Source: an uncultured bacterium
GTDB taxonomy: Bacteria; Acidobacteriota; HRBIN11; JAKEFK01
NCBI GenBank assembly: GCA_963771165.1
Contig: CAVYSN010000020.1
Coordinates: 357 to 64,356 of the forward strand
DNA length: 64,000 bases
Reading direction: 5' to 3'
A model generated the notes under the pieces. It was not told where the DNA came from. It was given only the letters and a program-made list of their open reading frames with translations, and searched no databases. Positions 7,851 to 60,575 of this stretch are shown here, piece after piece. A program made the position numbers and the translations under genes. Positions within the stretch are counted from its first letter, which is position 1. Every line of letters starts with the position of its first letter.

Positions 7851-7994
7851 AACGCAAAGGCGCAAATAGGTAGTGGAGAGCATTTCCAGTATCATTCGAA
7901 AGGCCATGGCCATGTAACGTTGATAATGCTGTCCCAGAATGTGCGCTATTTGTGAGGAAATGCCCTGCCACTACCGGCTTCGCGCCTCTGCGTT
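7851..7994. repeat. Hairpin element, CGCAAAG family; arms 7851-7866 and 7979-7994, split by a nested insertion
   Basis: Left arm aacgcaaaggcgcaaa versus the reverse complement of the right arm aacgcagaggcgcgaa (14/16 match). Right end reads ...ctgcgttaaag. The loop is occupied by the 107 bp element at 7869-7975. Confidence 0.75.
7869..7975. mobile_element. MITE-like element with ~19 bp terminal inverted repeats GGTAGTGG(C)AGRGCATTTCC, copy 1
   Basis: Left end is ggtagtggagagcatttcc. The reverse complement of the right end is ggtagtggcagggcatttcc. A second, shorter copy in the opposite orientation lies at 21767-21835. No ORF inside. Confidence 0.65.
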
Positions 7995-8007
7995 AAAGAG
8001 CTAAATC

Positions 8008-8721
8008 ATGCGATGTGCTTTATTTCTTCCGTTGTTCGGCGTGGCAACTGTACTTCTAGGGCTCGCGTCGAGCGTCTGTTCGCTTTTCGATCATTCGGGA
8101 CGAACAGCCCATCATTTCGCGCGTAACTGGTCCAGATTCATCTTCTGGGGTGTCGGAATCCGTGTTCACGTAAGTGGCGTTGAAAATATACCGAAAAACA
8201 GAGCGGTGATCTTCGCCGGAAATCATCAGAGCACAATTGATATTCCTGCTATGTTTGGGTATCTGCCCGCTCAATTTCGAATCATGGCCAAGCAAATTCT
8301 GTTTACGATTCCTTTTTTGGGCTGGCATTTGTATTTGGGAGGCAATATTCCAATTGATCGAAAAAACGCGAAGAAAGCCCAGCGTGGATTACTAAAAGCC
8401 GCCGCGCGCGTGAGAAAGAACATTTCGTTGTTTGTTTTTGTCGAAGGGACTCGAACACGCGATGGAAGCTTGCGAAAATTCAAACGGGGTAGTTTTACTC
8501 TCGCTAAAAAGCTGAACGTGCCGATTGTTCCTGTTGCAATCATAGGGACCTTTGAACTAATGCCGGCGGGGAGCGTCCTCGCAAAGCCAGGACATATCTA
8601 CCTGAAAATCATGCCCCTCATTGAAGTAGCGCCAGAATCAAAAACGGAAGATCTTTCCGCCGCAGTTCGGAATCGTTTGATCGACGCAGGCCTGACAGAG
8701 CCGGAACTCAAATCATCATGA
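8008..8721 (+). CDS. plsC: 1-acyl-sn-glycerol-3-phosphate acyltransferase
   Basis: FAGNHQSTIDIP (HX4D) and FVEGTRTRDG (EGTR) acyltransferase motifs, with an N-terminal TM segment. Confidence 0.8.
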   Translation: MRCALFLPLFGVATVLLGLASSVCSLFDHSGRTAHHFARNWSRFIFWGVGIRVHVSGVENIPKNRAVIFAGNHQSTIDIPAMFGYLPAQFRIMAKQILFTIPFLGWHLYLGGNIPIDRKNAKKAQRGLLKAAARVRKNISLFVFVEGTRTRDGSLRKFKRGSFTLAKKLNVPIVPVAIIGTFELMPAGSVLAKPGHIYLKIMPLIEVAPESKTEDLSAAVRNRLIDAGLTEPELKSS

Positions 8722-9602
8722 GCCTATTTGAAGCCTATTGGCGTGACAAGCAGAAAACAATCGAGAGACGGTTGCAGGAATTGATACCGGTTGAAGATAT
8801 CGAACCTAAAAAACTACACCAAAGTGTGCGATATTCCTTGTTTGCAGACGCAAAACGGATCCGCCCTGTGTTTGCAATGGCTGTCGCTTCTATCTTTCGA
8901 GTGGACGAGGATGGACTGTCGGAGGCTGCTTGCACGCTTGAGATGGTGCACACCTGTTCATTGATTCTGGATGATTTGCCTAGCATGGACGGCGCAACAT
9001 TAAGAAGGGGGAAGCCGGCCAATCATCTTGTTTTTGGAGAAGATACTGCGATTTTAGCTGCATTTTATCTTTTGAACCGTGCATACGGAATTCTTGCAAG
9101 TTACAGGCAATCACTGTTCAGTCCAACGCTGTCGGCACAGTTTGTTTCCATTCTTTCCCGAGCACTGAGCTCTGAAGGCGTGATCGGAGGGCAGCTTGTG
9201 GATCTCGCCTCCAAGAATATCGCAATCGATCTTGAGACCCTTGAATTCATTCATAGCAGGAAAACCGGAGCGTTGTTCTTGGCATGCGCTGAAATGGGAA
9301 CCACGTTCGCGAAAGCGCGAGAGGGAGAACGTCAGGCGATCCTGAACTTTGCAAAGAACCTGGGACTTGCCTTTCAGATTACAGACGACATTTTGGATGC
9401 GACAGCCAGCCCCTCGGTGATCGGCAAAGACACGGGTAAAGATACCGGCAAGACCACTTTCATCACCTTCTGTGGATTGGAAGGGGCGCGACAGCTTGCA
9501 AATGAGTTAATCGATACGGCGGAACAGACGTTGCGTCCATTGAAATCCCGGGGTGAATTGTTGCTGAGTTTTGCCGAATTTGTGCGACATCGAACCAAGT
9601 AG
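8718..9602 (+). CDS. Short-chain polyprenyl diphosphate synthase (FPP/GGPP synthase type)
   Basis: First Asp-rich motif LILDDLPSMDGATLRRGKP and second motif FQITDDILD. 4 nt overlap with plsC. Confidence 0.8.
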   Translation: MSLFEAYWRDKQKTIERRLQELIPVEDIEPKKLHQSVRYSLFADAKRIRPVFAMAVASIFRVDEDGLSEAACTLEMVHTCSLILDDLPSMDGATLRRGKPANHLVFGEDTAILAAFYLLNRAYGILASYRQSLFSPTLSAQFVSILSRALSSEGVIGGQLVDLASKNIAIDLETLEFIHSRKTGALFLACAEMGTTFAKAREGERQAILNFAKNLGLAFQITDDILDATASPSVIGKDTGKDTGKTTFITFCGLEGARQLANELIDTAEQTLRPLKSRGELLLSFAEFVRHRTK

Positions 9603-9632
9603 GATTTGATGATGATATACTCAGCACGCTGA

Positions 9633-13209: not shown

Positions 13210-14483
13210 TCATTTTTGTTGTGGTGTTTCTATTCAGTCTTCTGCTGATCGCCCGACCCGTCTTGAATCGAACCCGCGTTCTGGTTTTCTTGCTACTGTT
13301 CTATTTCATGGCTGTAAGAGAACCTGTCAATCAGTTTTTTGAGATTCATTATCAAACCGTTGTATTGAAATTCATGATCTACGTTTTCCTCATTGCCGTT
13401 CCCGTTCTTATTTTGATTGTATTGGGAATGCGTCACGGATGGAGAATTGGAATTGCCGTCATCGTGTCGTTTGTTTTGATGTTGCCGTTCACAAGGCCGA
13501 CTCTGCCATGTTTAAGGATGATGGCGGATTGGAAAATACGTTTTCTGCAGGATCGATTTTTCGAGAACTTGTGGCGGGTGAATCCAACCGCTCAAGACAT
13601 TTCGATTCTGGAGTCTTCCTGCCATTCCTTATCGCCCCATGCCAGGAACCGATTCGTCGCATATTTACGCAACTTTGCGATTCCTGAATCTTCGAATGAG
13701 TGTTTGACTCTTGCTCGAAACTGGCGCGGTCCAAAACCAGGACCGGAATTGATCGTACGGCATACGGAGGAGGAGTGGGGCGCACTATTTCAATCCGGGA
13801 ACAACCGGCAACGCGCAGGGATACTGGATCAGCTTCGCCGGCAAAGAAATCCTGCTTTGAAAAGCCAGGCTGTTGCCAATGTTAGTAGCCTGGATGAAAC
13901 GCTCGTCATCTCAGCCGTCCAGTACTTGCGTCAAATTTCCGGAATACAAATTGGGAACGATCCGGACCGTTGGAAGGAATGGCTTTCACAAACCACGGGA
14001 CAGGCCGTTTCCAGCATGTTTTCCGGAAAGGGAAGTTCGCCGCTGGCTCAGCAAGGATTTTCCGCCATTCAAGTACAGGATGATTTGCTTCTGGCAAGAA
14101 ACAGTCGAGAGGATTTTTTGAAAGTCTATCTCAGGAACCATTTTCCTGAATCGGTTTCAGAAGAACAAATTGCGTTGCTGAAGCAATTTTGTGATGAAGC
14201 GAGCAGGAGGCCGGATTCGCTGGCCGTTTTTTATCGTAGAGGAATGTTGTATTTTTTTCTTGCGCTATCTGGAACAAGCAGAATCAGAGAGGGGAAATCG
14301 GAAGACATCACAGGGGTAAGTGAAAATTGGAAAATTGCTCTCCAGAGTCTGCAGTATGCGGGGATGCCCGGACAGGAACTCGCACAGGAGGTCAATCAGA
14401 TTTTCCGGAAAGCGGATCAAGACCGCGATGGGGACCTCAGCAAGCAGGAAGTCCTATCGATACTGCAAAAGCACGGCCATTGA
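13203..14483 (+). CDS. Membrane-anchored protein with helical-repeat soluble domain and C-terminal single EF-hand
   Basis: Overlaps the upstream gene by 7 nt. About four N-terminal TM segments. Canonical loop DQDRDGDLSKQE at nt 14415-14450, near the C-terminus. Confidence 0.55.
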   Translation: MVIIFVVVFLFSLLLIARPVLNRTRVLVFLLLFYFMAVREPVNQFFEIHYQTVVLKFMIYVFLIAVPVLILIVLGMRHGWRIGIAVIVSFVLMLPFTRPTLPCLRMMADWKIRFLQDRFFENLWRVNPTAQDISILESSCHSLSPHARNRFVAYLRNFAIPESSNECLTLARNWRGPKPGPELIVRHTEEEWGALFQSGNNRQRAGILDQLRRQRNPALKSQAVANVSSLDETLVISAVQYLRQISGIQIGNDPDRWKEWLSQTTGQAVSSMFSGKGSSPLAQQGFSAIQVQDDLLLARNSREDFLKVYLRNHFPESVSEEQIALLKQFCDEASRRPDSLAVFYRRGMLYFFLALSGTSRIREGKSEDITGVSENWKIALQSLQYAGMPGQELAQEVNQIFRKADQDRDGDLSKQEVLSILQKHGH

Positions 14484-14496
14484 CGGTGGCACAATG

Positions 14497-15324
14497 TCAT
14501 GTCCCGTTCGCGCCGTGAACCAGTTCGCGTGCGCGCTCGGCAGCCTTCACAACGGCCTTGACTAAAGTCACACGCAGTTTACCTTCTTCCAGTTCCAGAA
14601 GTCCGTCAATGGTGCAACCCGCAGGAGTCGTTACCATGTCCTTCAACAGAGCCGGATGCGCTTTCGATTCCAGCACCATTTTTGCCGCCCCGTACATTGT
14701 TTGGGCGGCCAGCAGTGTGGAAATTTCACGCGGAATGCCGAGTTTTACTCCGGCTTCAGCCAGAGATTCGATCACCACATAAATGTAAGCCGGTCCGCTT
14801 CCGGACAAGCCGGTCACACCATCCATAAGGGATTCATCCAGAAAAACGGTTTCTCCCACGCATTTGAAAATATGCTGAGCGATCTGGAGATGTTCTTGAT
14901 TCGCGTAAAGCCCACCGCAGAGCACGGTCATTCCCGCATTCATTACACAGGGAGTGTTTGGCATAGCCCGCACAACGGGGATATTTCCGGAGAGTCGATC
15001 TTGAATGTAAGCCGTCGTAATTGATGCGGCGACTGTAATGACCAGTTGATCGGGATGCAGCGACCCGGCGAGTTCCCGAATAACCTGATTCATGTTTTGT
15101 GGTTTGACAGCGAGCAGTATGATGTCCTTTTCTTGAACGATTTGATGATTATTGATTTGGACCTCGATTCCCAATCGGTCCTGAACACGTTGCGCGGATT
15201 CCGGATGTCCTACGCTTCCAGCAATGTTTCCGCGGTCCACCGCTCCTTGTTTCAATAACCCGGTGACCAGCGCTTCTCCGATCTTTCCAACACCGATAAC
15301 GGCGATTTTCTTGCGATTCAACAT
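14497..15324 (-). CDS. proC: Pyrroline-5-carboxylate reductase
   Basis: KIAVIGVGKIGEAL Rossmann start and a conserved C-terminal ...SPAGCTIDGL... region. I prefer the ATG at 15324 (AGGA 5 nt upstream) over the track's GTG at 15345. Confidence 0.9.
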   Translation of the reverse strand: MLNRKKIAVIGVGKIGEALVTGLLKQGAVDRGNIAGSVGHPESAQRVQDRLGIEVQINNHQIVQEKDIILLAVKPQNMNQVIRELAGSLHPDQLVITVAASITTAYIQDRLSGNIPVVRAMPNTPCVMNAGMTVLCGGLYANQEHLQIAQHIFKCVGETVFLDESLMDGVTGLSGSGPAYIYVVIESLAEAGVKLGIPREISTLLAAQTMYGAAKMVLESKAHPALLKDMVTTPAGCTIDGLLELEEGKLRVTLVKAVVKAAERARELVHGANGT

Positions 15325-15358: not shown

Positions 15359-15430
15359 TTAATGCAGAGACGCCGAGCACGCAGAGAAAAAGAAATTTTA
15401 AACTCTGCAGTCTCCGCGTCCCTGCGTTAA
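15359..15430. repeat. Hairpin element, GCAGAG/CGCAAAG-like family
   Basis: Arms are ttaatgcagagacgccgagcacgcagag (15359-15386) and ctctgcagtctccgcgtccctgcgttaa (15403-15430), with an AT-rich 16 nt loop. Lies between divergent proC and the DUF488 gene. Confidence 0.8.
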
Positions 15431-15991: not shown

Positions 15992-16034
15992 ACAGGTCGG
16001 AATTACAATCACTCTTCCTTGAAGGGGGTGGAGC

Positions 16035-16605
16035 ATGCTACCTGAAGATCAACACGTCTTTGAATACCGGAAACAGTTTTTTAAACTGGCGGGCGGAGCA
16101 TTTCGCGTTTACGACACCAGCGAGCGCCTTCTTCTTTTAGCGAACAAAAAGCGTTCAAGATCAGGGAGGATATTCGGGTTTACTCGGACGAATCGAAACC
16201 AATCAGGTACTTGCGATTCGGACCCCCAGATTCTGGATATCTCGCCACGTTCGAAATTTTGGAGACTGCCTTCCGGGGAAAAGGCGGGTTCGCTGAAGCG
16301 CAAAGGTTGAAATCCATATTCAAGGATGAATGGGAGATATACGATCCAACGGGTTTTGATCGGCGAAGATATGAAGAGGATTCCACATTATTTGCTCTTT
16401 CACGGCGGTTCCTGACCAATTTGATTCCACAAAAGTATCATTTCACGGTGGCGGCCAGACGGTAGGTACGTTCCAGCAACATTTCAATCCTTTTCTGTAT
16501 CGCGCAACAATGGATCTTACGCAGGACACAGGAAAACGGCTGGATCGCCGGATGGCTTTGGCGGCGGGAATTCTGCTTCTTGCGATCGAAGGAAGACAGG
16601 ATTGA
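16035..16605 (+). pseudogene. Phospholipid-scramblase / tubby-C-terminal-like family gene, broken over three reading frames
   Basis: Family-like pieces lie in different frames: EYRKQFFKLAGGAFRVYD..LLLLANKK; KAFKIREDIRVYSDESKP; SGEKAGSLKRKG; LKSIFKDEWEIYDPTG...EDSTLFALSRRFLTNLIPQKYHF. The tail GGQTVGTFQQHFNPFLYRATMDLTQD..RRMALAAGILLLAIEGRQD ends at TGA 16603-16605. At least 3-4 frame switches are needed. Confidence 0.5.
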
Positions 16606-16611
16606 TTATTT

Positions 16612-16655
16612 ATTGCAGATTGTAGATTGCAAATTGCAAATTGCAAAAATTGCAG
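16612..16655. repeat. AT-rich tandem/palindromic TTGCAAA-unit element
   Basis: attgcagattgtagattgcaaattgcaaattgcaaaaattgcag, made of 7 nt units whose TTGCAA core is self-complementary. The tgtagattg motif is shared with 26764-26788. Confidence 0.7.
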
Positions 16656-16723
16656 AGTTATGCTTTTGACGGCTTAGAATGCACGAACCACGTGGACAGT
16701 CTGCGGCGGAAATTGCCGAGTAC

Positions 16724-21766: not shown

Positions 21767-21835
21767 GTAGTGGCAAACAATTCCTGTGCAATCCTGATTT
21801 TGGCGTGATTACCCGGCAAATGCTCTGCCACTACC
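21767..21835. mobile_element. MITE-like element with GTAGTGGCA...TGCCACTAC ends, copy 2 (shorter, inverted relative to copy 1)
   Basis: Left end gtagtggcaaacaattcct; right end caaatgctctgccactacc. Aligns with the reverse complement of 7869-7975 at both ends, with an internal deletion. Confidence 0.6.
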
Positions 21836-24123: not shown

Positions 24124-24191
24124 TTTGAACAGAAGACAGCGAAGCAAGCGAAGGAGTTTTGTATTTTGCTGTCTTTGTTATCTTCTGTAAA
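24124..24191. repeat. Hairpin element, AGAAGA-GCGAAG family
   Basis: Arms are tttgaacagaagacagcgaagcaagcgaagg (24124-24154) and ttgctgtctttgttatcttctgtaaa (24166-24191). Same family as 60507-60575. Lies between convergent genes. Confidence 0.8.
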
Positions 24192-42122: not shown

Positions 42123-42166
42123 GATATAAGTGCAATAGCAAAAGGTAGTTGCCAGCCACGGAGCGG

Positions 42167-43888: not shown

Positions 43889-43899
43889 GTGATGAGATT

Positions 43900-43993: not shown

Positions 43994-44002
43994 GCTCTAG
44001 AT

Positions 44003-45988
44003 CTATTCGGTGAGTTTGAATTTCACCGTTTTGGTTTCGGTCAGCGTGGAAGTGCCGCCCAGTCGGGAACGGAGAGTGACCGTGTATTCGCCTCGAGCGG
44101 AAAAGTCATATGTGCCGAGTTCGGCGACCCAGGCTCCTTTCTTGCCGAGGTGCAGACCGTTTGATACTTCATCAATGAAAGGGAAGGCATCCACGTTCAT
44201 GTTCGGCGGGCCGGTGATTTGGAGATCGGAAATGAGGTTGTAACCGGGAGTAAGGCCGGTCCCTGAATAACTTGCCAAAACAATGATGTAGTCCCCACGT
44301 TTGAACGTGGATTTCAGAGTCAGTTTGAAATTCGAGAAATTTAAGCGGGCCGTTTTCAACGATCGGGTCTGGATCGTTCCTTTCTGACCGGGATCCTCAC
44401 CGTCAATCCCATGTTTCGCGAAGGCGCTTTGAATCGCTGTTCCGTTCGCGCCGCCATTCTTGCGTAGATCGGCAGTCAGCATGGAGTTCCGCAAATCGAA
44501 GAAATTCATATCGTTCGGAAGGATTGCAAGGCTGTGGTACAGAATGTTTTGAGCGGTGTCGATTCCAATTTGCTTTTGCAAATCCCACCAGGCTCCTCCG
44601 ACAATCAGACCTGTGTGATGTGATTCTGATTTGCCCAGACCCTTCAGGATTACATCCTGCGGGTACCTGTTATTATTTTCCAGATTCCGTCCCTGGAATC
44701 TTCCAGTGCTTTTCAATCGCAATCCGAATTCAGCAAGTTTTGAATTTCCCGTGATGGCGGAAGCTGAAATGTCGCTAAAACCTTCGTGAAACGCAAAAGC
44801 ATAATTAGACTCGAATGTTTCCAGAAAGCCTGGTTTTGCGAAGTCCAGCACCGCATGCCCGTACTCATGGTAATAAACGTCGGCATCGTGTCCAAGATTT
44901 TCCAAACGGTCTCCGGCCCCCATGACGATTGCTCCATTCTTAAAGGGTGTGGATCTGCCGCCGCGTGTGTAAAAGGCGTTATCAAAGCCTTTGCCTATGC
45001 CTGTAACAATGTTTACAAATACGGGGATCTGGCGGTTGAGTTTTTGGAATCCGAAAGAGCGCCACCGATCATGAACGACGTTGATATGGAAATAGCCCAT
45101 TGCTTCTGCGAACCTGGCATCCGAAGTTGGATAGCTGTAATCCTCATCCGATTCCGCCGCGGTCGTATACCCGTTGAGATCTCCATTTCTTGGAAATGGC
45201 AGTTGAAAATTTGCGTTATAGATTTTTGTGTATTTGCCGTTCAGTCTATTGGAATCTTTCAAGTGAAGAAACCGTTCATTGGAAACATCTGGAGTGACGA
45301 CAGGGTTCTCTGGAAATACTGTCCCTGTAGCCTGCACTTCGAAAAATTCGCGCTGGACTCGCAGGACTTTGTCGGGCAAGAGCGCATCAACGTAGATCGC
45401 CCACTGGCCCGGAAATCTGTTCGAAATGGCTTCGAACTTCCAAACAATTCTTGTTTGAGTGAACCCCGGCAGAATCATCAATGTTCCGTTCGAAACAACT
45501 CCATCTGCGAACCGGATTCGCGACGCGGTTACGCGTGCTTCATCACGTCGGTCGATGGTTATGGCATCCAGGCGCTTCATCGAATGATACTGACCTCCTG
45601 CTGCCAGAACGTGACCTTCCACGTCTGTATGTAAAGCGAGTTCTCCGCCTACTACGGGAAGTCCGAAAAAATATTGGCGAAATATGTAGCTGGTACCTGA
45701 ATCCTTTTCGATACTTTCAAGCCGCAGATGAGACTGATCTTGAATGCCGAACAGTTCCGCATAATCTGCAAAAAAAAGTTTTGCATCGATTTCATTGGAG
45801 ACACGCCGGCCGCCGCCAAAACCGTACATAGAACGGACTCTCCCATCATCAAATAGATGAAAAATCCAACCGGTTCCCTCTTGCGCTCGAAATTCTTCGA
45901 TCGCGCTTTGGCTGTTGTGTGCCCCCCCTTGCAGGGAAGTCATCAGGATAAACAGAATCAGTACAAAGATGAATCGAAAATGCTTCAC
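44003..45988 (-). CDS. Secreted zinc metalloprotease, thermolysin/fungalysin-like gluzincin (M4/M36-like)
   Basis: Signal peptide. HEYGHAV followed about 20 residues later by HEGFSD (HExxH plus ExxSD third ligand). The C-terminal ~100 aa look like a beta-sandwich domain. Confidence 0.7.
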   Translation of the reverse strand: MKHFRFIFVLILFILMTSLQGGAHNSQSAIEEFRAQEGTGWIFHLFDDGRVRSMYGFGGGRRVSNEIDAKLFFADYAELFGIQDQSHLRLESIEKDSGTSYIFRQYFFGLPVVGGELALHTDVEGHVLAAGGQYHSMKRLDAITIDRRDEARVTASRIRFADGVVSNGTLMILPGFTQTRIVWKFEAISNRFPGQWAIYVDALLPDKVLRVQREFFEVQATGTVFPENPVVTPDVSNERFLHLKDSNRLNGKYTKIYNANFQLPFPRNGDLNGYTTAAESDEDYSYPTSDARFAEAMGYFHINVVHDRWRSFGFQKLNRQIPVFVNIVTGIGKGFDNAFYTRGGRSTPFKNGAIVMGAGDRLENLGHDADVYYHEYGHAVLDFAKPGFLETFESNYAFAFHEGFSDISASAITGNSKLAEFGLRLKSTGRFQGRNLENNNRYPQDVILKGLGKSESHHTGLIVGGAWWDLQKQIGIDTAQNILYHSLAILPNDMNFFDLRNSMLTADLRKNGGANGTAIQSAFAKHGIDGEDPGQKGTIQTRSLKTARLNFSNFKLTLKSTFKRGDYIIVLASYSGTGLTPGYNLISDLQITGPPNMNVDAFPFIDEVSNGLHLGKKGAWVAELGTYDFSARGEYTVTLRSRLGGTSTLTETKTVKFKLTE

Positions 45989-46047
45989 ATCAAAACTCCT
46001 TGACTCATAAGAGCGTGAATGAAGGCAGAATCCTTTGCGGAAAGATC

Positions 46048-46140
46048 TAATCGCCAGGCGCCAAATCGCGAAGTACGCCAGGATTTTCTTCTAATTTATT
46101 CTTTTGACGTCCTTGGCTGACTTGGCGTCTTGGCGGTTAG
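46048..46140. repeat. Hairpin element, GCCAAG family (more degenerate left arm)
   Basis: Arms are taatcgccaggcgccaaatcgcgaagtacgccagg (46048-46082) and ttgacgtccttggctgacttggcgtcttggcggttag (46104-46140). Confidence 0.8.
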
Positions 46141-46142
46141 AG

Positions 46143-48490
46143 TTAGAGCGATTTCAGTACCGCGACGGTTACGGCAGTTCCTCCCTTTTCTTGCGTTTCA
46201 GAATGAAAACGCGCAACGTGTGGGTGGCCGGTCAGCATCTCCGCGATGGCCTTTCTGAGTTTTCCGGTGCCGTAGCCATGAATGATCCGGACCTCCGGAA
46301 GCTGGCTCAATATTGCATCATCAAGATATTTATCAACACTCGCCAGTGCTTCCTCGGCATTTTGCCCGATGACGTTTAATTCGCGTGGAACATCCTTCTT
46401 TTCTGTGTGCAGTTGAATGCCTTTTGGCAGGCTGTTCGCCACCGATTCACGCTTCTCCAGTTGATGAACCGGAACAACGAATCGCTTGTTCCGGATCAGA
46501 ACCTCAGCTTGTTCCTTTTTGGCCGAAATGAATTCGCCGAAATCTTTGTAAAGTTCCACCCAAACACGATCACCGGGTTTTAGATCGGATGCTGCAATCT
46601 CCGGTGCCGATGTTGTGGTCGTTTCCTGGAGTTGCTGAATGACCGGCGCAATCTCTGCCTCGTACTGCTTGCGAATTTGCTGGCGCGTTTGTGCATTCCT
46701 GATTTGACTAAGCAGATTTTCGACCCGCGCGTTTAAAGTCCGGACGAGATCAGTATTCTGAGTTCGAAGCTTCTTTCGTTGTTCTTCGAGCTCAATTTCG
46801 AGTCCTTCCAACCGTTGTTTTTGTGCGAATGCTGTATGCGTCCATTCGGCTTTTTCTTTTTCGAGCTGGTCCTGATTCTTTTCCAGAACCCGGATTTTTT
46901 CCTGCAGATTTTTCTGAAAATCCTGCACCTGCCTGAGATTTTCATCCGTCATCCCCCGAGCGCGTTCCAGGATTTGTTGCGGAATTCCCAGGCGGCCGGC
47001 AATTTCAAGCGCGTGGCTGGCCCCGATCTGATCCAACAGAACGCGATACGTGGGTTGCAGATTTTCACCGTCGAATTCCATCGCTGCTGTGACGCTCCCC
47101 GCGTGATTCACGGCAAACATTTTCATCGCACTGTGATGAGAAGTAACCAGCACTTTGACGTCGTGTTTTAAAAGCTCTTCCAGAACCGCAACGGCCAGAT
47201 GCGAGCCTTCTTCAGGGTCCGTTCCGGTTCCGAGCTCATCCAGCAGAATCAAGCTTCTACTTCGTATATTCGAAAGTATTCCTACTAATGATCGGATATG
47301 ACTGGAGAAAGTGCTGAGGCTTTCTGAGATGCTCTGCTGGTCTCCTATGTCGGCCTGGATCGTGCTCAACCGGGGGAGCTTCGATCCTTCCGCAACCGGG
47401 ATCGGGAGCGCGCAATGTGCCATCAGAGAAATCAACCCGGCGGTCTTCAGAAAAACCGTTTTCCCCCCGGTGTTTGGACCCGTGACAACCAGTGCTTTCT
47501 TTTCAGGCGGCAGTTCCAGGTCCAGTGGAATGATTGGCTTGTTTTGTTTCTGAAGCGTGGCAAGAAGGAGCGGATGCCTTGCCTCCTTCAGGATCAGACT
47601 GAATTCTTCCGTGAACTCCGGAACTATGCAATCGAAGGCCTTTCCGAAACGGCCCCGCGCGAAAATCAAATCCAAACCGATCAGCTGCTGAAGCGAAAAA
47701 AGCAGAGGGTCAGCATTTCTTGCAACCAGTAATGTCAGATCTCTCAGAATTTTTCTGACCTCTTCCGTTTGCCGGTCGGCAAGCTGAGCGAGTTCATTAT
47801 TGAGTTCGAGAACCGACAGGGGTTCTACAAACAAGGACGCGCCGCTTCCCGATTCACCATGGACCACGCCACGGATTGCATTCTTTTCTTCGGTGCGGAC
47901 CAGCAAAACGGCACGACCGTGACGGTACGTCACATAATCTTCCTGCAAGGCATTCTTGTACCGGCTGTCGCGAAAGAAACGCTCCAACGCGCGTTCCACA
48001 CGTGATTGAAGCTGCAAGCACGTGTTTGATGACGCGAGCCAGCTCCGGCGTTGCATCCTCTTTTACTTCACCGGTTGCTTCGATTTTTGCAACGATTTCG
48101 GCTTCGACAACTTTTAAATCGGGCAGGCGGGAAGCCACGCAAGTGAAGATGCGGGAGTTCCTTGATCCATCCGGCTGGCTGCGTGGCGAATTTCATTGTT
48201 GATGGATGCCAATTTTCCAATCCGGTAAAGATCGATTCCCTCCGCAATATGATTTTCAATCGCTGATTTGCGGATGATTGTTTCAATGTTTTCCAGGCCG
48301 GAAAGGGAAGGAAGCGTTCCTTTTTGGGCACTGATCAACGCGTCGCGCGTCAAGGCCGAGTTCTTCGTCCAGATTCTCCACCGGCGAAATCTTCAGAGCG
48401 CGATCCTGAGCTGCAGGAGAGGTCGTGTAGCCGGAGAAGAGTTGCAGGAATTGCGGCCATTCCAGGACTGCAGCAGCTTTGCTCAGAGAT
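46143..48490 (-). pseudogene. mutS2: Endonuclease MutS2 (Smr domain), N-terminal ~150 codons split over several frames
   Basis: The intact part (46143..48056) has Walker A GPNTGGKT, DELGTGTDP and C-terminal Smr IIHGYGTGKLR. Upstream MutS2-like pieces sit in other frames: SKAAAVLEWPQFLQLFSGYTTSPAAQDRALKISPVENLDEELGL; TRDALISAQKGTLPSLSGLENIETIIRKS...; LPDLKVVEAEIVAKIEATGEVKEDATPELARVIKH. At least 3 frame switches. The start position is approximate. Confidence 0.8.
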
Positions 48491-48503
48491 CAACGTAATT
48501 AGT

Positions 48504-48574
48504 GCAGAGCAATGAGCAATGAGTCATGAAGACTTACGGAAAGTTCTCATTGCTCATGACTCATCACTCATGAC
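48504..48574. repeat. Hairpin element, CAATGAG family (7 nt units)
   Basis: Arms are gcagagcaatgagcaatgagtcatgaag (48504-48531) and ctcattgctcatgactcatcactcatgac (48546-48574). Confidence 0.8.
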
Positions 48575-48579
48575 TTATA

Positions 48580-49276
48580 TTACAGGTGGTTGATGATGCT
48601 GGCGATTTGACCGGCGCCGAAGCCGTTGTCAATGTTTACGACGGCCAGTGCTGCGCAGCTATTGAGCATGGATAGAAGCGGTGCAACTCCACCAAAATGA
48701 GCTCCGTAGCCGATGCTGGTGGGAACGGCAATCACAGGAGCCGAAACAAGATCCGGCGACGACGCTCGGGCAGAGCTCCTTCCATGCCGGCAACAACAAT
48801 GATGACGCGCGCGTTCATCAACCGCTCTTTTTCAGAAAGCAAGCGGTGCAAACCGGCCACTCCTGCGTCGTACAGGCAGTCCGTTTGATTGCCAAAGAGG
48901 TCTGCGGTGACGTGCGCTTCTTCTGCCACAGGAATGTCCGCCGTTCCGGCGGAAACGATGAGGATCGTGCCTTTGCCCGTGTACTCCTTCTTGCGCCGAA
49001 TGGAAATCGCTTTGCTGTTTGGATGAAACTCGACTTCCGGGAAATCCTTTCTGCAACGACTCGAAAAACGGACTCGTCAGACCGGGTGACCAGAACGTTC
49101 GTATTGTTCTTGTACAGGCTCCGCACGATACCCTGAATTTGATCCGGTGTCTTTCCGGTGCCGAAAATGACTTCCGGAAAGCCTTTTCGCATTTCGCGAT
49201 GATGGTCAACACGCGCGTATCCAAGATCTTCAAAGGGAAGATTCTTCAGTACATCCAGAGCTTCTTCGGCGCTCAA
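48580..49276 (-). pseudogene. larB: LarB-like (PurE-related) nickel-pincer cofactor carboxylase/hydrolase, split over at least three frames
   Basis: The N-terminal part reads ...GFPEVIFGTGKTPDQIQGIV...VLVTR. The middle part, in a second frame, reads KDFPEVEFHPNSKAISIRRKKEYTGKGTILIVSAGTADIPVAEEAHVTADLFG...[13 protein letters not shown]. The end, in further frames, reads SVVAG / [55 protein letters not shown], with the stop at 48580-48582. Confidence 0.7.
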
Positions 49277-49330
49277 GCGGGAATTCTTGTAATCTTCCAG
49301 CAGATGAATGAAGTCGTTTCGGATCCATGG

Positions 49331-50582
49331 CTAGGAAGCGGCCTCTATCTCTTCATCGGGGATTTCTTTTGTTCCACGTACTATACCTATCGCACTATGC
49401 TCACGCTGAAACGTATTTTGAGCGACATCCAGAAGTTCGCGTGCCGAGACTCTTTGAACCATATCGCGATAAATCGGTGCGTAGGGAAGAGCTCTGCCCA
49501 GAATACTGCTGCTTGTATAGTCCATGACTCGCGAGCTTGCTGTTTGTGTATTCAACGTGTAGTTGCCAATCAACGCGTGGCGCGCGTTTTCCAATTCTTC
49601 TGCTGTCACAGTTGTTCTTTTCAATTCCTCCAGCTCGTGCCACATTCCATCGAGCGCCTGTTCTTCCTTGGAAGCTTCCCCTGCGATGTAAGTTATGAAA
49701 GCGCCACCATGCAAAGCGGAGATTGGAGATGCATGCACCGTGTAGGCAAGCGCCTTCTTACTACGAAGATTTAAAAAGAGCCTGCCCCCCATACCGGACA
49801 AGATCTGTTGCAGGGCATCATATTTCGGAATTTCCAGACTCGATGCCGGTGGAGCAGGAAAGCCCAGAACGAATGCGGTCTGCTTTTTGGGTCTATTCTC
49901 CATTTCCAACGGATGAACCGGAGTCTTCACGTGGGGAGGATTCTGCAGATCCTCAGCAGAATCACTTAGACCGGAAATGGTCTTTTCCAAATGGTCGAAG
50001 AGCTGATCCGGATCGAAGCTTCCGACGACTGTAACAATCGCCCTTTTGCTGTTCCATAAACGTCTTTTCCATATTGCGAGTTGTTCTCGATCCATCGTAG
50101 TGATTGTGTGTTCAAAGCCGTTTTCCGGTAAACCGTAAGGATGACGGGTTCCATAAAATGCGCGTTGGAAGAGCTGCATGGGGCCGTACAAAATTATCAT
50201 CCATATTCCGGCGGATTGCTGATAAGACCTTTCCCTTTTCCGTATCGATTTCTGTTACTGGAAACTGGGCGTCCAGAATGCACTCGATGAGAAGATCACA
50301 CATATCGGGAAAATATTCAGGCAGCGCTTCCATTGTAAAACCGCTGAAGTCTCGATAACAATTGAATCGCGGTGGGTTGCCCAGTCCATCGAAACGATCT
50401 GCGAGCTGCTCTGCAGAAAACTTCGAGGTTCCTTTTAGCGCGCCACGATGCATGAGGTGTGTGATTCCGGCATTCGCTTCCGTTTCTTCGCTGCGGCCTC
50501 CAAGAAAAAAGATCCCTGCTGCGATGAATGGATAATGATTGTCCGGATGCAAAATGTACGTCGCATGTCCTTTGCGAACCAC
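49331..50582 (-). pseudogene. M16-family peptidase, second (non-HxxEH) subunit/half, frameshifted
   Basis: 50112..50582 (VVRKGHATYILHPDNH...GITHLMHRGALKGT...AIRRNMDDN) continues in another frame as YGPMQLFQRAFYGTRHPYGLPENG... (49331..50200). The join fits a one-base change in a T run near 50190. The N-terminal boundary with the upstream M16 gene is unclear. Confidence 0.65.
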
Positions 50583-52038
50583 CGGCTCGCTGAGGGTCTG
50601 AATCCGCGACTGATTGCTTCGTGGAGCGATCCCAATCGGGGAAGAGCGGTCGATCGACAGGAGCCACGTATCCTTTTAATAGGACTTCCTTGTATTCCTC
50701 AGATGAAATATCCGGAACATTCCCGTTTACGTACTCCATCACGGAGAGATTTTCGGTGCGTAAATACTTAGCCGATGTTTGAACAATTTCCTCTGCAGTG
50801 ATCTGTTGCATACGGTTCAAGTGTTCTTCAATTCGTTCATACGAACCGTAGGCCTCGTAATAGCTCAACAGCTCCGCAAGACTCAAAGCATCTTCTGTTT
50901 GCATGGCTTGATAAAGACGTAGTTTATTTCGTATTTTTTGAAGCTCATCGCCGTCTATTCCATTATCCTGCAAATCGCGAAGCACACTCCAGCTGTCGCT
51001 GGCGGCTTCACGGATTTTTTCGGGATCGGTGATTGCCGTGAGCATCAGCAATCCCACATTTTCGTACGCAAGGTAATAGCAGGATGCAGAGCTCGCGGAT
51101 CTTTTCCGCTCTACAACGTGACGATGAAGCCGGGCACTTCTTCCGGCTGACATAAGGAAAGCAAGGAATTCAATAACAGGTCCATCCGGATGCAAAACGC
51201 CCGGCGCATGAAAACCGAAATGCAGATAGCTCTGGGTGGCCGTCGCGTTTCTCTTCGCATAACGGATGCCGTGCTGGGGCGGTTCCTCTGGGCCAAAATC
51301 CTTGAGAAGCTCGCGATTCTTCATCGGAGTAAATGATTCTTCAACAGCTTTTCGCACAGCCTTTGAATCGAATTTGCCTGTGACGGTGACCACCATGTTT
51401 TGGGGCTGATAGTAGCGGTAAAAGTAATCGAACAGATGCTCGCGGTTATAGGATCTTAATTGTTCTGGTGTGCCGATTCGCCAGCGTTTCATCCTGTGTT
51501 TTGTGTAGGCGAGTTGGATCAACATTTCCTGCGAATAGGCGGACGGATTGTCCAGCTTGCGATTGAATTCCTCGATGACAACTTCGCATTCTTTTTTCAG
51601 CTCATCATCCGGAAACAACGGCGCAGCAAATGCATCAGCCATGATCTCGAGAGCCGGCATCAAATTCCCGGCCGGGACTTCACAATAATAGTTGGTCTGA
51701 TCATAACTGGTGCTCGCATTGATCATTCCTCCCAGAGCCTTCATGCGCACGCCCAGGGTTCCCGGTTCCGGAAAATTCGTGGAACCTTTGAAATACATAT
51801 GCTCCAGCAGATGGGCGAGTCCGACTTCGGAATCGGTTTCACAAAAATAACCCGCTTTTACGCAAAAATGCAGCGCCGCCGCCTCGGAATTTTGCAACGG
51901 ATGCAGAAGCAAAGTCAGACCGTTCGGAAAATAAATTCTTTCAGTATTCTTTAGCCAGTCCATGTAAGTAGATGAAGGAGTTAAGGTGATTAAAGTGTTC
52001 AAAATGTTTTCATTAGACACTTTGAACCCTTTTAACAT
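50317..52038 (-). CDS. M16-family zinc peptidase (HxxEH); last ~100 codons of this ORF call are probably out-of-frame read-through
   Basis: GLAHLLEHMYFKGS (inverted HxxEH zinc motif). M16-like sequence continues to about ...LLKGYVAPVDRPLFPDWDR (about nt 50620). After that the frame becomes Arg/Ser/Cys-rich, while the M16-like sequence continues in another frame. Confidence 0.7.
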   Translation of the reverse strand: MLKGFKVSNENILNTLITLTPSSTYMDWLKNTERIYFPNGLTLLLHPLQNSEAAALHFCVKAGYFCETDSEVGLAHLLEHMYFKGSTNFPEPGTLGVRMKALGGMINASTSYDQTNYYCEVPAGNLMPALEIMADAFAAPLFPDDELKKECEVVIEEFNRKLDNPSAYSQEMLIQLAYTKHRMKRWRIGTPEQLRSYNREHLFDYFYRYYQPQNMVVTVTGKFDSKAVRKAVEESFTPMKNRELLKDFGPEEPPQHGIRYAKRNATATQSYLHFGFHAPGVLHPDGPVIEFLAFLMSAGRSARLHRHVVERKRSASSASCYYLAYENVGLLMLTAITDPEKIREAASDSWSVLRDLQDNGIDGDELQKIRNKLRLYQAMQTEDALSLAELLSYYEAYGSYERIEEHLNRMQQITAEEIVQTSAKYLRTENLSVMEYVNGNVPDISSEEYKEVLLKGYVAPVDRPLFPDWDRSTKQSVADSDPQRAGGSQRTCDVHFASGQSLSIHRSRDLFSWRPQRRNGSECRNHTPHASWRAKRNLEVFCRAARRSFRWTGQPTAIQLLSRLQRFYNGSAA

Positions 52039-52063
52039 TTTTGACTCTTTTGATCTTCAGGGG

Positions 52064-53723
52064 CTATTGAACTCTTCGGACTAAAATCAACGTGCTGTCA
52101 TCTAACGGTGGAGCTCCGCGAGTAAATTCGCTGATTTGACGTTCCAGACGTCAGTGCAAGATCTTCCACACCTGCTGACCGGTTCGCCGTCAGTACTTTG
52201 AGAACGCCTTCTTCACCGAATTCTTTTTCCTCGGGATCCACTGCTTCCGTGATTCCGTCCGTGTAGAGGAACAGAGAGGTCACGCGTATTGAGGCTGATT
52301 TGCTGGGCCTTGTATTGCGCGCTGGCGATAATACCGACCACCGGGCCACCCGCCTCGAGCAATTGATGGCCGTCCGGCCTGACAAAAATCGCAGGGTTGT
52401 GACCGGCATTTACGTACACAAATGTGTGAAGCGTGGGTGTCCAGTTCTCCATAAAACACTGTGATGTATTTGTTGGGCGGCGAATTTTCAAACATCACAT
52501 TGTTGAGCTGGGCCATCAACGCGGCCGGATTCTCCTCGCTTTTCACAAGTGTTCGAATCGATGCCTGAAATGCGGCCATCAAAAGGGCGGCGCCCACACC
52601 TTTCCCTGAAACATCTGCAATCACAACGGCCAGTTTTCCGTTCCCTTTATCGATGAAGTCGTAATAATCTCCACCGATCTGGTAGCAGGAATGATTCACT
52701 CCGTAGATTTCATAGCTCGGATGTTACCGGATTCACCTGAGGCAGCAAACGCCGTTGGATTTGTGCTGCAACAGCGAGCTGTTCTTCCATCACCTTTTTT
52801 TCAAGCTGTTCTTCCAGCAGCAATGAATTTTCAATCTTTACAGCCGCCATATTCGCTATCAATGCAATCAACCGCAAATCGGATTGTGTGAACGTGCGGC
52901 GTGAAATCAAGTTATCAATGTAAATCAATCCGATCACGTTTTTCTCATTCCACAGAGGCACACAGATGATCGAACGGATTCCCTGCATCTGGATGCTTTG
53001 AGCGGAACCGAAACGCGCATCCGCCTGTGCGTCCAATGTCAGCACGGCTTTCTGGTTTCGCATGACTTCATCAATGATGGTTCGGCTGATTTGCAGGTTC
53101 TGATCCGCGTGCGAATTACGCACGACCTTGAGCTCCAGCTCTCGCGGATTCTTCGGATCCAGCATGATCAACGCTCCCCGTTCCGCAGGGACGGCTTCAA
53201 AAACAATGTCCATGATGACTTCGACCAGTTTTTCGATCGGAAAATGCGTAATCAAAGTGGCAGCTGCTTGCTGCAGAGCAGGCCAGAGATTTTCGCCGGC
53301 TCCGACCGGAGTAATTCCGGAGATGGCCTCTTCGGTGTAGCGTCGGATATTTAGCTCGTCTGTATCGATCATGAAGGTGGCTTCCATGCCGAGTGCCGGA
53401 GCCGTATCGCGAACTTCGAGGCGGTCAGAAATTGGGGAAAGATAACGGATTGTAATTTCACCTAGCTGAATGACATCTTCATTCTTCAGAGGAGAGGCCT
53501 GACGGATCCTGATGCCATTTAAAAATGTGCCGTTTCGACTTCCTGTATCCTCTACGAAATATTTGGTGTCCTTTCGGACGATTCTGGCGTGATGTCGCGA
53601 AAGCGATAAGTTATTGAAAGTCAAATCATTTGCGGAGGATCGACCGATGGTGAATGCCTCTTTATTGAGGTCAACCTCAAACGGCTTCTCGTGCTTCTGT
53701 TCTACGCGCAATAAAGGCATCAA
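52064..53723 (-). pseudogene. FHA-GAF-PP2C(SpoIIE) phosphatase; the phosphatase domain is split over many frames
   Basis: Intact N-terminus 52710..53723 has FHA (FTIGRSSANDLTFNNLSLSRHHARI...GSRNGTFLNG) and a GAF-like region. PP2C pieces in different frames:
- SYEIYGVNHSCYQIGGDYYDFIDKGNGKLAVVIADVSGKGVGAALLMA
- FVYVNAGHNPAIFVRPDG...EAGGPVVGI
- LFLYTDGITEAVDPEEKEFGEEG
- EFTRGAPPLDDSTLILVRRVQ, stop at 52064-52066
At least 5 frame switches. Confidence 0.7.
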
Positions 53724-53770: not shown

Positions 53771-53859
53771 TTCAACGCAAAGACGCAAAATCGCAAAGAA
53801 AATCCTTTCTTTATCGAGGAGCAGCATCATAACTTAGCGTCCCGGCGTCTTGCGTTAAA
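53771..53859. repeat. Hairpin element, CGCAAAG family
   Basis: Arms are ttcaacgcaaagacgcaaaatcgcaaag (53771-53798) and cttagcgtcccggcgtcttgcgttaaa (53833-53859). The corrected trpS stop codon (53855-53857) lies in the terminal TTAA. Confidence 0.85.
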
Positions 53860-55897: not shown

Positions 55898-55977
55898 TTA
55901 ACACAGAGCCACGGAGGCACAGAGTTCCAGTGTCTTATTTTTTGTTCGCTCTGTGTTCCCTGTGTCTTCTGTGTTAA
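55898..55977. repeat. Hairpin element, CACAGAG/CACGGAG family
   Basis: Arms are ttaacacagagccacggaggcacagag (55898-55924) and gctctgtgttccctgtgtcttctgtgttaa (55948-55977). Confidence 0.85.
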
Positions 55978-56327: not shown

Positions 56328-56405
56328 TTTACCTCGGAGTCACGGAGCTCACGGAGGATAGATGAAGATTTTTTCTCTCTGTGCTCTTCGTGACTCTGTG
56401 GTGAG
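56328..56405. repeat. Hairpin element, CACGGAG family
   Basis: Arms are tttacctcggagtcacggagctcacggagg (56328-56357) and ctctctgtgctcttcgtgactctgtggtgag (56375-56405). Confidence 0.85.
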
Positions 56406-59034: not shown

Positions 59035-59930
59035 ACATACGATATCAAGTAGAGAGATTTGCCTTCTGGCTTGCCTGTCTGGCAGCCCGTCTAGTTCCCC
59101 GCGATGTTTTTCTCCGTTTGGGACGGAGTTTTGGACGAGCAGCGTACCGGTTGGATAAACGCCATCGAGACATCGCTCTGGATAATTTCCGAACTGCTTT
59201 TCCCGAAGCGACGGAGAGAGATGCTCAGGAGACGATCCGTCGATGTTATGAGTCGTTCGCGGCGTATTTGTTTGATATGCTTACATGTTTTCCAACGCTT
59301 CCTGCGTCCAGGTTGCAGAAGTTTGAAGTGGAAGGGGCCGAACATTTGGAAGCTGCGTATAAAAAGGGAAAAGGAATTATTCTGTTCGGTGCTCATTTCG
59401 GAGTTTGGGAGTTGATGGCAATGGCGCATGGTGCGCGAGGCTGGCCCCTTGAACTTGTTGTCCGGCGGCTGGATAACCCCTATCTGGAATCCTTGTTGGA
59501 AAGGCTACGACTCAGCACAGGCAATGTGATCATCGATAAAAAGCAAGGATTTCGACCGATGCTGAAAGCACTCAGGGACGGGAAAGGAATTGCTGTATTG
59601 ATGGATCAGAACGTCAGCACTGAAGATCGCATTTTTGTCGAGTTTTTAGGAAGACCCGCTTCGACGACGCCATCTGTTGCGCTGCTGAAATTGAAGACGG
59701 ATGCAGCTTTAATCTGCGCCTACAGCTACCCTCTGGCCGGTAATCGTTATCGTTTTGTTTACGGTCCGCCAGTGGAAATACAGCTGACTGGGAGTCGGCA
59801 GGAAGATGTGCATCGAATCACACAGGAATGCAACAATACGATCGAGGCCTTTGTTCGAGCGCATCCCGAATGCTGGCTATGGATGCACAGGCGTTGGAAA
59901 ACGCAACCTACGGAGCCTGTGCTGGCGTGA
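59031..59930 (+). CDS. Lipid A biosynthesis late acyltransferase (LpxL/HtrB/LABLAT family)
   Basis: N-terminal anchor, GAHFGVWELMA (HxxxxE-type motif) and DQN motif region. Overlaps lpxK by 4 nt. Confidence 0.8.
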   Translation: MNIRYQVERFAFWLACLAARLVPRDVFLRLGRSFGRAAYRLDKRHRDIALDNFRTAFPEATERDAQETIRRCYESFAAYLFDMLTCFPTLPASRLQKFEVEGAEHLEAAYKKGKGIILFGAHFGVWELMAMAHGARGWPLELVVRRLDNPYLESLLERLRLSTGNVIIDKKQGFRPMLKALRDGKGIAVLMDQNVSTEDRIFVEFLGRPASTTPSVALLKLKTDAALICAYSYPLAGNRYRFVYGPPVEIQLTGSRQEDVHRITQECNNTIEAFVRAHPECWLWMHRRWKTQPTEPVLA

Positions 59931-60499
59931 AGAAGGCCATATTTATCGATCGCGATGGAACCCTCATCCAGGAGGTGAGCTATCTACGGATGCTTGAGGA
60001 CTTAAAATTCACACCTCGCGCGGCCGAAGCGCTACGAATATTTCAGAATCTTGGCTATCTCAACATAGTGATCACAAATCAATCTGCTGTCGCGCGGGGC
60101 CTGATTAGTCCGAAATCAGTAAACAAGATTCATCAAAAATTAAAAGCGATGGCAAAAGATGAAGATGCTGTGATCGATGATGTTTTCTACTGTCCACATT
60201 TTCCAGCGGGGCGGGTCGCTCCTTATAATATTGAATGTGAATGCAGGAAGCCGAAATCCGGTATGCTGGGACAGGCGGCCTCAAAACATCGCATTGATTT
60301 GCAGCAAAGTATTCTAATCGGAGATAAGACCGTGGATCTCGAACTGGGGAAGAATGCCGGGTTGAGGACTGTGCTGGTTCTGACAGGTTACGGTTCGCAA
60401 ACAAAGGAGGCATGGAAAGAACCGGTGGAATGCTTTCCGAATCTATTTGAGTTTGCAAAAACTCTGAGTAGCAGCAGTTCTGAGATCCGCCTGGATTGA
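59927..60499 (+). CDS. gmhB: D-glycero-D-manno-heptose 1,7-bisphosphate phosphatase (HAD-IIIA)
   Basis: AIFIDRDGTLI (DxDGT), ITNQS, CPHFP...CECRKPKSGM (zinc/cap loop) and IGDK. GTG start at 59927 overlaps the upstream stop (GTGA). Confidence 0.8.
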   Translation: MKKAIFIDRDGTLIQEVSYLRMLEDLKFTPRAAEALRIFQNLGYLNIVITNQSAVARGLISPKSVNKIHQKLKAMAKDEDAVIDDVFYCPHFPAGRVAPYNIECECRKPKSGMLGQAASKHRIDLQQSILIGDKTVDLELGKNAGLRTVLVLTGYGSQTKEAWKEPVECFPNLFEFAKTLSSSSSEIRLD

Positions 60500-60506
60500 A
60501 AAGATT

Positions 60507-60575
60507 TTTAAACAGAAGATAGCAAAGGGAGCGAAGAGAAACAAATTCTTCGCTTTCTTTGCTACCTTCTGTCAA
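60507..60575. repeat. Hairpin element, AGAAGA-GCGAAG family
   Basis: Arms are tttaaacagaagatagcaaagggagcgaag (60507-60536) and cttcgctttctttgctaccttctgtcaa (60548-60575). Same family as 24124-24191. Confidence 0.85.

Follow-up and report, generated by a model that had tools for sequence, protein, structure and literature searches.

A 64-kb stretch of housekeeping genes from the genome of an uncultured Acidobacteriota bacterium (this whole stretch is called the window here) holds, in many of its intergenic spacers, hairpins of one common build and of several different sequences. The question raised by this locus is what these hairpins are and how they reached the spacers. A preliminary description had listed 13 such loci. 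We identified arms of the same build on contigs of other bacteria, where they enclose genes for the GxxExxY protein (PF13366/TIGR04256). This gene-arm association, which the preliminary description had not seen, is the new result, and it suggests a candidate autonomous partner for the hairpins. We give an even chance to the reading that the window hairpins are the gene-less members of a selfish element class that carries GxxExxY genes, similar to miniature inverted-repeat transposable elements (MITEs) or to REPINs, which are doublets of repetitive extragenic palindromic (REP) sequences. In the literature covered, which leaves out most subscription journals, neither these hairpins nor repeats flanking GxxExxY genes are described.

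Architecture of the intergenic hairpins

All 13 listed loci fold into a single long imperfect hairpin, with minimum free energies (MFE) between -24 and -57 kcal/mol. When the window was scanned for gapped stems under strict scoring, nine hairpins reached a score of at least 30, whereas 40 dinucleotide shuffles averaged 0.35 and never exceeded 2; chance palindromes were rejected as an explanation. Eight of the nine are listed loci or a further, 14th element at 51970-52056 that was absent from the list, and the ninth (44609-44664) lies within a gene. Other scans were less discriminating. Sliding-window MFE did not distinguish the elements from background, two permissive stem scans gave no separation from it (in one of them the shuffles matched the count of the real sequence), and an ungapped Watson-Crick scan recovered a single element. 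An assembly artefact was also rejected, because independent assemblies, and two complete isolate genomes, show the same build. CRISPR arrays were considered and rejected.

The arms consist of three to four tandem units of 7-9 nt, and the stems, which contain internal mismatches, are 22-35 pairs long (50 in the composite element at 7851). As the preliminary description had proposed, the arms are periodic: in nine elements, Tandem Repeats Finder assigned the arms periods of 7-9 nt, at 33150, 35751, 40166, 43905, 46112, 48507/48553, 52039, 53775 and 56335. Fixed-lag autocorrelation missed the periodicity because units are 7, 8 or 9 nt long. In a test for recurring 5-mers, chains of at least three were present in 68 of 176 arms, against 0.75 in shuffled arms. 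The loops in the window comprise 4-18 unpaired nucleotides and, again in agreement with that description, are A/T-rich in 11 of the 14 elements (0.70-1.0, compared with a window mean of 0.52). Several sequence families are present, and the elements are not copies of one MITE. The families had been said to share little similarity, but this part of the claim does not stand, since the unit types (CGCCAAG, CGCAAAG, CGCAGAG, CACGGAG/CACAGAG, ACAGAAG/GCGAAG and CAATGAG) fit one loose consensus, C-R-C-N-R-A-G. The termini, previously given as at or near TTAA, do not strictly have this sequence. Those in the window are TTAA-, TTTA- or TTCA-like, and 68 complete copies of the CGCCAAG family begin with T-K-A-A followed by CCGCCAAG and close with CTTGGCGG followed by T-T-M-A. 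Direct repeats of 2-5 nt, as expected of a target-site duplication, were found at the element ends in 0-3% of these 68 copies and at other offsets in at most 12% (2-nt repeats). The rule that the units of the 5' arm end in RAG applies in the window but has exceptions elsewhere, among them GTAACTC, ACAGGATT and GTCCAAA units as well as elements whose polarity is reversed (CTTCGTG...CACGAAG).

The 14 copies in 64 kb are all intergenic, with the sole exception of the 5' arm of the element at 33095, which extends the pdxA open reading frame (ORF). Counted on the gene map, the elements occupy approximately 14-15 of about 29 intergenic gaps of at least 40 nt; they fill about half of the gaps, and not almost every one as first stated. 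Most copies begin 1-10 nt past a stop codon. No T-tract follows the stem on either strand of the window elements, and the terminator-like sites in 33000-52999 number 22, versus 26 in shuffles, with none coinciding with an element. Intrinsic terminators have a short G+C-rich stem, a loop of 3-8 nt and a U-tract, in contrast to the long, mismatched stems found here. In addition, proC and a DUF488 gene start divergently on either side of the copy at 15359, and the elements therefore cannot all be 3'-end signals. The earlier view that plain intrinsic terminators do not account for them is thus upheld. Nor do the hairpins belong to a catalogued RNA family: at the gathering threshold the only Rfam match in the window is the tRNA, and at E<=1 one extra, below-threshold match appears on the other strand at that tRNA. 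As for mobilising genes, 51 of the approximately 54 ORFs of a rough gene map were scanned against Pfam or NCBIfam, and none matches a transposase, a REP-associated tyrosine transposase (RAYT) or the IS200/IS605 families, which agrees with the preliminary description.

GxxExxY genes between tandem-unit arms

On several contigs selected by their arms, an ORF opens after the 5' arm and matches TIGR04256, the 'GxxExxY protein'. Tandem-unit inverted arms with an inverted-repeat (IR) score of at least 18 are present at 13 of 14 distinct bacterial GxxExxY loci; the same score is reached by 4 of 600 random 400-nt intervals (0.7%). Among loci fetched by the protein alone, seven of eight have arms. The gene is always at the loop position. 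Arm type tracks the GxxExxY clade across phyla, and the arms have the same polarity as in gene-less hairpins. CGCCAAG arms go with one clade (that of locus L005), on contigs labelled Acidiferrobacterales, Nitrospinae and Methylomirabilis, and a Bacillota contig carries a GxxExxY gene with the arm variant CACCAAG/CACGAAG. The relatives in a second clade, which was first seen between ACAGGATT arms in L082, are all flanked by ACAGGATT/ACATGATT arms; among them are genes from two complete genomes, those of Lacipirellula parvula (Planctomycetota) and Sulfuriroseicoccus oceanibius (Verrucomicrobiota).

The connection with the window lies in the arms themselves. Gene-bearing elements have arms of the form T-K-A-A-CCGCCAAG-(N)CGCCAAG-(NN)CGCCAAG and its complement, and the same arms are found in the window elements at 33095, 43900 and 46048 (for instance, TTAACCGCCAAGACGCCAAATTCGCCAAG in the window and TTAAACCGCCAAGACGCCAAGGACGCCAAG in L128). 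On contig L132, gene-less hairpins with the same arms adjoin a gene-bearing one. GxxExxY genes lie in tiny operon spacers, such as those between cbbQ and cbbO and between nuoD and nuoE, and the gene-less hairpins of the window occupy the same kind of short spacer. Since a given protein clade keeps its arm sequence from phylum to phylum, the arms either form part of the same mobile unit as the GxxExxY gene or are its specific target.

The GxxExxY protein is small (approximately 130 aa). Its AlphaFold model (pLDDT 95.4) has a PD-(D/E)XK fold, the best structural matches in the PDB are lambda exonuclease and the Cas4 protein SSO0001 (TM approximately 0.5), and the alignment shows no variation at residues D70, E80 and K82. 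A search of the PDB with the GxxExxY profile gave no sequence match. In a survey of the PD-(D/E)XK superfamily, PF13366 is entered as 'Unknown', with multiple transfers between divisions (PMC3424549).

The hairpins form several related families of palindromic repeats, in which arrays of three to four units are closed by T-K-A-A...T-T-M-A. For their mobility, these data suggest the following model. Each clade of the nuclease would recognise the tandem-unit arms of its own family, perhaps as an extruded hairpin or cruciform, and would move both gene-bearing and gene-less forms. After insertion, the copies would decay through transitions and unit slippage. In transcripts, they would be stable stem-loops without a U-tract just past stop codons, and as such could end mRNAs, protect them or be excised from them. 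A use of such RNA stem-loops by the host is compatible with all the readings considered in this work alike.

The same co-occurrence could have arisen by homing. In that case the hairpins would be landing sites that spread by other means, and GxxExxY would act like a homing endonuclease, cutting one family of arms, after which repair would copy the gene into the loop. Free-standing homing endonuclease genes, including that of the PD-(D/E)XK enzyme I-Ssp6803I, are comparable small nuclease genes, and the GxxExxY genes resemble them in their location in tiny operon spacers and their patchy occurrence across phyla. A correspondence between arm type and protein clade is also expected from homing specificity, and the constant loop position of the gene fits as well. 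So do the other loop insertions that exist (the GTAG-tagged pair in the element at 7851 and nested hairpins) and the large excess of gene-less forms, approximately six GxxExxY loci having been found among the 158 arm matches of the arm-selected set. Homing, however, leaves the spread of the hairpins unexplained, including that of near-identical arms in different phyla, and requires a second, unseen mobilising system; arms of approximately 27 nt are also short for repair-mediated copying. We know of no homing endonuclease genes with tandem-unit inverted arms or abundant gene-less palindromes. Overall, we regard homing, the leading alternative, as rather unlikely.

Genes of a second family were observed in a similar position. 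PF05635 (23S_rRNA_IVP, a four-helix-bundle family) is represented on contig L145 at 3807-4175 and 5719-6081 and on L147 at 4033-4287, where the genes are interspersed in a glycosyltransferase operon. Each lies within its own tandem-unit inverted arms, made of GGTTCAA units or of GCGATAAG/GCGAGTTAAG units, and both contigs also bear arm-enclosed GxxExxY genes. The intervening sequences of 23S rRNA likewise carry a small selfish ORF in the loop of a long stem (PMC4990558). The two cases differ in that the intervening sequences are located in rRNA helices and removed by RNase III, while the genes observed here lie between protein-coding genes. The window has neither an rRNA gene nor an IVP gene. 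Arm-enclosed ORFs on L028, L047, L073 and L085 had no match in Pfam. In one of them (L073, 29-1096), CGCCAAG-type arms surround an ORF of 198 aa with a D...EVK-like motif seen by eye, which may be another nuclease cargo.

Turnover of copies in related genomes and beyond

Comparison with relatives indicates that whole elements come and go. The DnaG of the window is 80% identical to that of the metagenome-assembled genome (MAG) swi_bin.31 and 64% identical to that of a second Acidobacteriota MAG, and the relatives of its HU protein carry the label Acidobacteriota. The HU gene in the window has a hairpin on both sides (55898 and 56328). On contig L125, whose HU is 93% identical, both sites are plain spacers of 58 and 27 nt without a hairpin, and on L126 (HU 94% identical) they hold hairpins with CACGGAAT units. 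On L001 (DnaG 80% identical), the gaps beside mutS2, dnaG and rpoD contain hairpins of other unit types. The comparison of orthologous regions that had been proposed earlier thus revealed both presence and absence of elements.

The build also holds well beyond the window, contrary to the outcome that the preliminary description had named as a refutation. The CGCCAAG-family pattern was found on at least 120 metagenome contigs, with a G+C content of 0.47-0.72 among the matches listed, and on 25 viral contigs of IMG/VR, and the same 27-nt arms occur in several phyla. Copies of one family have their arms in common and differ in their loops, whose lengths span 8 nt to more than 150 nt. Different unit families are commonly nested concentrically; the unit type of the window element at 15359, for example, is also nested in viral contigs L164 and L166. 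The three CGCCAAG copies of the window have common derived variants (a second unit that reads CGCCAAA and a 3' arm with CTTGGC-W), which points to multiplication within the genome. We conclude that the window elements are repeat elements and not stems evolved locally.

The number of units in the same element also changes, as seen in L041 and L100 (four versus six units), where the flanks differ between the contigs. This larger element of approximately 330 bp has CGCCAAG arms inside it (L041, ~2300-2700 and ~14400-14600; L100, ~2700-3050) and is bounded by the outer inverted repeats TGTCCAAAATA...TATTTTGGACA. In the orthologous pair L109/L122, a two-base compensatory change (CCAAG to CGGAG, matched by CTTGG to CTCCG) has altered both arms, so that CGCCAAG reads CGCGGAG. 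The variable base of the terminal tetranucleotide covaries between the ends, with 21 complementary cases versus 12.4 expected (p=0.001). At the linker positions between units, no covariation was detected beyond base composition (purine/pyrimidine bias).

An alternative is that the hairpins are host RNA structures evolved in place, which would end transcripts without a U-tract, protect 3' ends or be cut by RNase III, with units generated by slippage and arm-to-arm correction and with a secondary association with selfish genes. The position of most copies just past stop codons agrees with this, as do the lack of enrichment of canonical terminator-like sites, the shift of unit copy number in place, the paired change in L109/L122 and the covarying terminal base. 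Against it stand the presence or absence of whole elements between relatives with HU proteins 93-94% identical, the occurrence of the same 27-nt arms on contigs of such different G+C content and in several phyla, the copy between divergent gene starts and the linkers without covariation. In addition, a strand-asymmetry test found no excess of G-U pairs or of stability on the transcribed strand, and the antisense strand folds better in four of eight co-directional cases. An origin as host RNA structures is unlikely in our judgement.

Several points also weigh against assigning the window hairpins to a GxxExxY-bearing class. The first 120 loci were selected by their arms, which biases the counts drawn from them. 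The gene-arm link rests on two arm families (CGCCAAG and ACAGGATT), and of the 14 elements in the window only three are members of either family. A profile search of the 64-kb window matched no ORF to GxxExxY, and distant viral homologues of the protein (32-41% identical) have no arms. The sharing of arms but not of loops is unusual for copy-and-paste elements. The absence of covariation at the linkers suggests that selection for pairing is weak there, or that the copies are simply decaying. Finally, nuclease activity and arm recognition are predicted for GxxExxY from its fold and from co-occurrence.

Known repeat systems and other features of the window

The hairpins resemble REP sequences, bacterial interspersed mosaic elements (BIMEs) and REPINs in being short imperfect intergenic palindromes, present in many copies, frequently in pairs or clusters, located at gene 3' ends and free of target-site duplication. 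REPs of E. coli stabilise upstream mRNA, and in REPINs the arms are more conserved than the spacer. The window hairpins could accordingly be viewed as REP/REPIN-type repeats mobilised by a RAYT, an HUH tyrosine transposase, encoded elsewhere in the genome. The better conservation of the arms, the palindromic form without duplication and the GTAG-tagged palindrome pair in the window agree with this view, and Acidobacteria encode RAYT-like 'TIRYT' transposases with flanking inverted repeats (PMC3733652). The heptamer hairpins, however, end in T-K-A-A and lack the GTAG/CGTC tag, only the sequences at 21767-21834 and 7870-7974 beginning with GTAG. Their arms are tandem arrays of three to four units of 7-9 nt, in contrast to the single palindrome of 20-40 nt of REPs, the arm sequence is common to several phyla, and the gene between the arms encodes a PD-(D/E)XK nuclease and not an HUH enzyme. 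No RAYT was noticed beside copies in approximately 1 Mb of fetched loci, in which no systematic search was made. We consider mobilisation by a RAYT very unlikely.

The two GTAG-tagged inverted pairs (GTAGTGGCAGAGCATTT...AAATGCTCTGCCACTAC) form a second repeat class in the window and look like REP doublets. The pair at 21767-21834 stands alone between two flanking genes, and the pair at 7870-7974 lies inside the loop of a heptamer hairpin. The element at 7851-7994, listed earlier with the others, folds as a hairpin but is a composite with the GTAG pair nested in its loop. Its outer arms are similar to those of the element at 53771, and its inner arms, GTAGTGG(C)AGAGCATTT, match those of 21767-21834.

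With MITEs, the hairpins share small size, a non-coding and variable interior, presence or absence between relatives, nesting of copies and terminal inverted repeats in common with a longer gene-bearing form, which here encodes a PD-(D/E)XK protein. They differ from MITEs in the lack of target-site duplication, in a partner gene that is not a DDE transposase, and in that the whole element amounts to little more than two arms and a short loop.

Tandem heptamer repeats are known from other bacteria. The short tandemly repeated repetitive (STRR) sequences of cyanobacteria and the TAACTGA repeats of Beggiatoaceae are tandem 7-nt units of several types that lie between genes, near start or stop codons (PMC4679880; bioRxiv 10.1101/2022.06.06.494920). 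In Beggiatoaceae, 169 sets are direct and a single one is inverted (bioRxiv 10.1101/2022.06.06.494920). The likeness to the window elements includes the 7-nt tandem unit, the diversity of sequence types and the presence of a CGCCAAG half-arm on a Nostoc plasmid. The known repeats differ in forming direct arrays, usually upstream of genes, whereas those described here are inverted pairs that form hairpins, and in having no reported link with a nuclease gene. The unit sequences in the window presumably also differ from the published STRR units. The half-arm is a lone 3' arm of the CGCCAAG family (CTTGGCGTCCTTGGCGTCTTGGCGGTT) at ~148006-148036 of plasmid pn1 of Nostoc sp. UHCC 0926 (L150), a cyanobacterial megaplasmid; it occurs at four places in the record and lies inside another inverted repeat (GGACTTACGCA...TGCGTAAGTCC). 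One direct array in the window is ATTGCAA x5.1 at 16612-16647 (Tandem Repeats Finder). Its unit is nearly self-complementary, the array is located in an otherwise unexplained gap of 687 nt (15992-16678), and it is possibly related to the hairpin elements.

A wider proposal can be formulated, which we put forward tentatively and consider more likely wrong than right. GxxExxY proteins, and perhaps 23S_rRNA_IVP proteins, would be the enzymes or cargo of an unrecognised class of mobile elements with tandem-unit inverted ends. Each nuclease clade would recognise its own unit and move itself and gene-less hairpins, without target duplication, into operon spacers of at least seven phyla and of phages, and the heptamer repeats known from cyanobacteria and from giant sulfur bacteria would be footprints of the process. 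PF13366/TIGR04256 and PF05635 are large families, and a fixed partnership with a DNA structure would give both of them a testable role. Such a class would add a type of nuclease and an end architecture to the known modes by which small elements spread in bacteria, and it supplies a concrete hypothesis for intergenic heptamer repeats. The hairpins also matter for annotation: they occupy many operon spacers, can extend ORFs, as in pdxA, and are a probable cause of breaks in metagenome assemblies. Gene calls and operon models for Acidobacteriota and other soil phyla would benefit if they were recognised.

Integron attC sites were considered and rejected, because the elements are flanked by housekeeping genes in both orientations (rpoD, dnaG, mutS2, pdxA, ruvX, trpS-type), in contrast to promoterless cassettes of uniform direction. 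By eye, their ends also do not follow the R''/R' core consensus RYYYAAC...GTTRRRY.

Table 1. Hairpin elements of the window (TRF, arm period reported by Tandem Repeats Finder; scores are those of the hairpin scan)
Position	Type	Setting	Detection
7851-7994	Composite; outer hairpin with two CGCAAAG-type units per arm (~7851-7869, ~7975-7994)		Fold, -56 kcal/mol
15359-15430	CGCAGAG/CGCCGAG family	Divergent starts: proC (-), DUF488 gene (+)	Score 27
24124-24191	ACAGAAG/GCGAAG family	Convergent genes	Score 26; arms match 60507
33095-33188	CGCCAAG family	pdxA/ruvX spacer	Score 36; TRF
35704-35780	CACGGAG/CACAGAG family	Convergent genes; 2 nt past one stop, 9 nt before the other	Score 31; TRF
40166-40238	GCGTCTNC units	1 nt past rpoD stop	Period 8, 4.8 copies
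43900-43993	CGCCAAG family	M36 peptidase gene/dnaG spacer	Score 37; TRF
46048-46140	CGCCAAG family, more decayed	2 nt past mutS2 stop	Score 32; TRF
48495-48574	CAATGAG family	Upstream of mutS2	Fold; TRF
51970-52056	A/T-rich, AAG-ending units (GAGTTAAG, GTGATTAAAG)		Score 35; period 9 at 52039-52057
53771-53859	CGCAAAG family		Period 8, 3.1 copies (TRF)
55898-55977	CACAGAG/CACGGAG family	9 nt past HU-family gene stop	Score 32
56328-56405	CACGGAG family	DUF3467 gene/HU gene spacer	Score 34; TRF
60507-60575	ACAGAAG/GCAAAG/GCGAAG family	7 nt past stop, 6 nt before next start	Score 44

The elements are listed in Table 1, and the one at 60507-60575 is the most perfect copy in the window. In the pdxA ORF (32153-33148), the last 17 codons correspond to the 5' arm and part of the loop of the element at 33095, the stop codon lies in the loop, and of the 331 residues the Pfam PdxA match reaches no farther than 306. 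Apparently, the original stop codon was replaced by the element, which gave the protein a new C-terminal tail. The hairpin at 40166-40238 is directly upstream of the tRNA-Met gene (40086-40161, - strand). The best promoter-like match of the scanned region (TTAAGA-18-TATAAT, 10/12) is at 40239-40268 on the - strand, at the extreme end of rpoD, and is directed into the hairpin and the tRNA-Met gene, so that the tRNA transcript may have the hairpin as its 5' leader. In the relative L001, a hairpin of AACAAAG units occupies the place that corresponds to 48495-48574, and in L002 an ATTGCGG x4 array adjoins the tRNA.

In addition to the genes named above, the window contains pyrD/pyrF and a gene for a class I (W/Y-type) tRNA synthetase. 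At 24261-28000 (- strand) there are three tandem genes of 387-392 aa without a Pfam match, the outer two of which are 68% identical to each other. The adjoining ORF of 679 aa (28012-30051) likewise has no Pfam match. An ORF of 126 aa at 31767-32147 has weak, sub-threshold matches to Hfq over residues 60-112, preceded by an N-terminal extension. Two other sequence features were observed: a short TGTAGAT x2 array at 26764-26778, and a G+C-rich, non-periodic stem-loop at 34630-34714 (-33 kcal/mol) with convergent genes on either side, which is unlike the heptamer hairpins.

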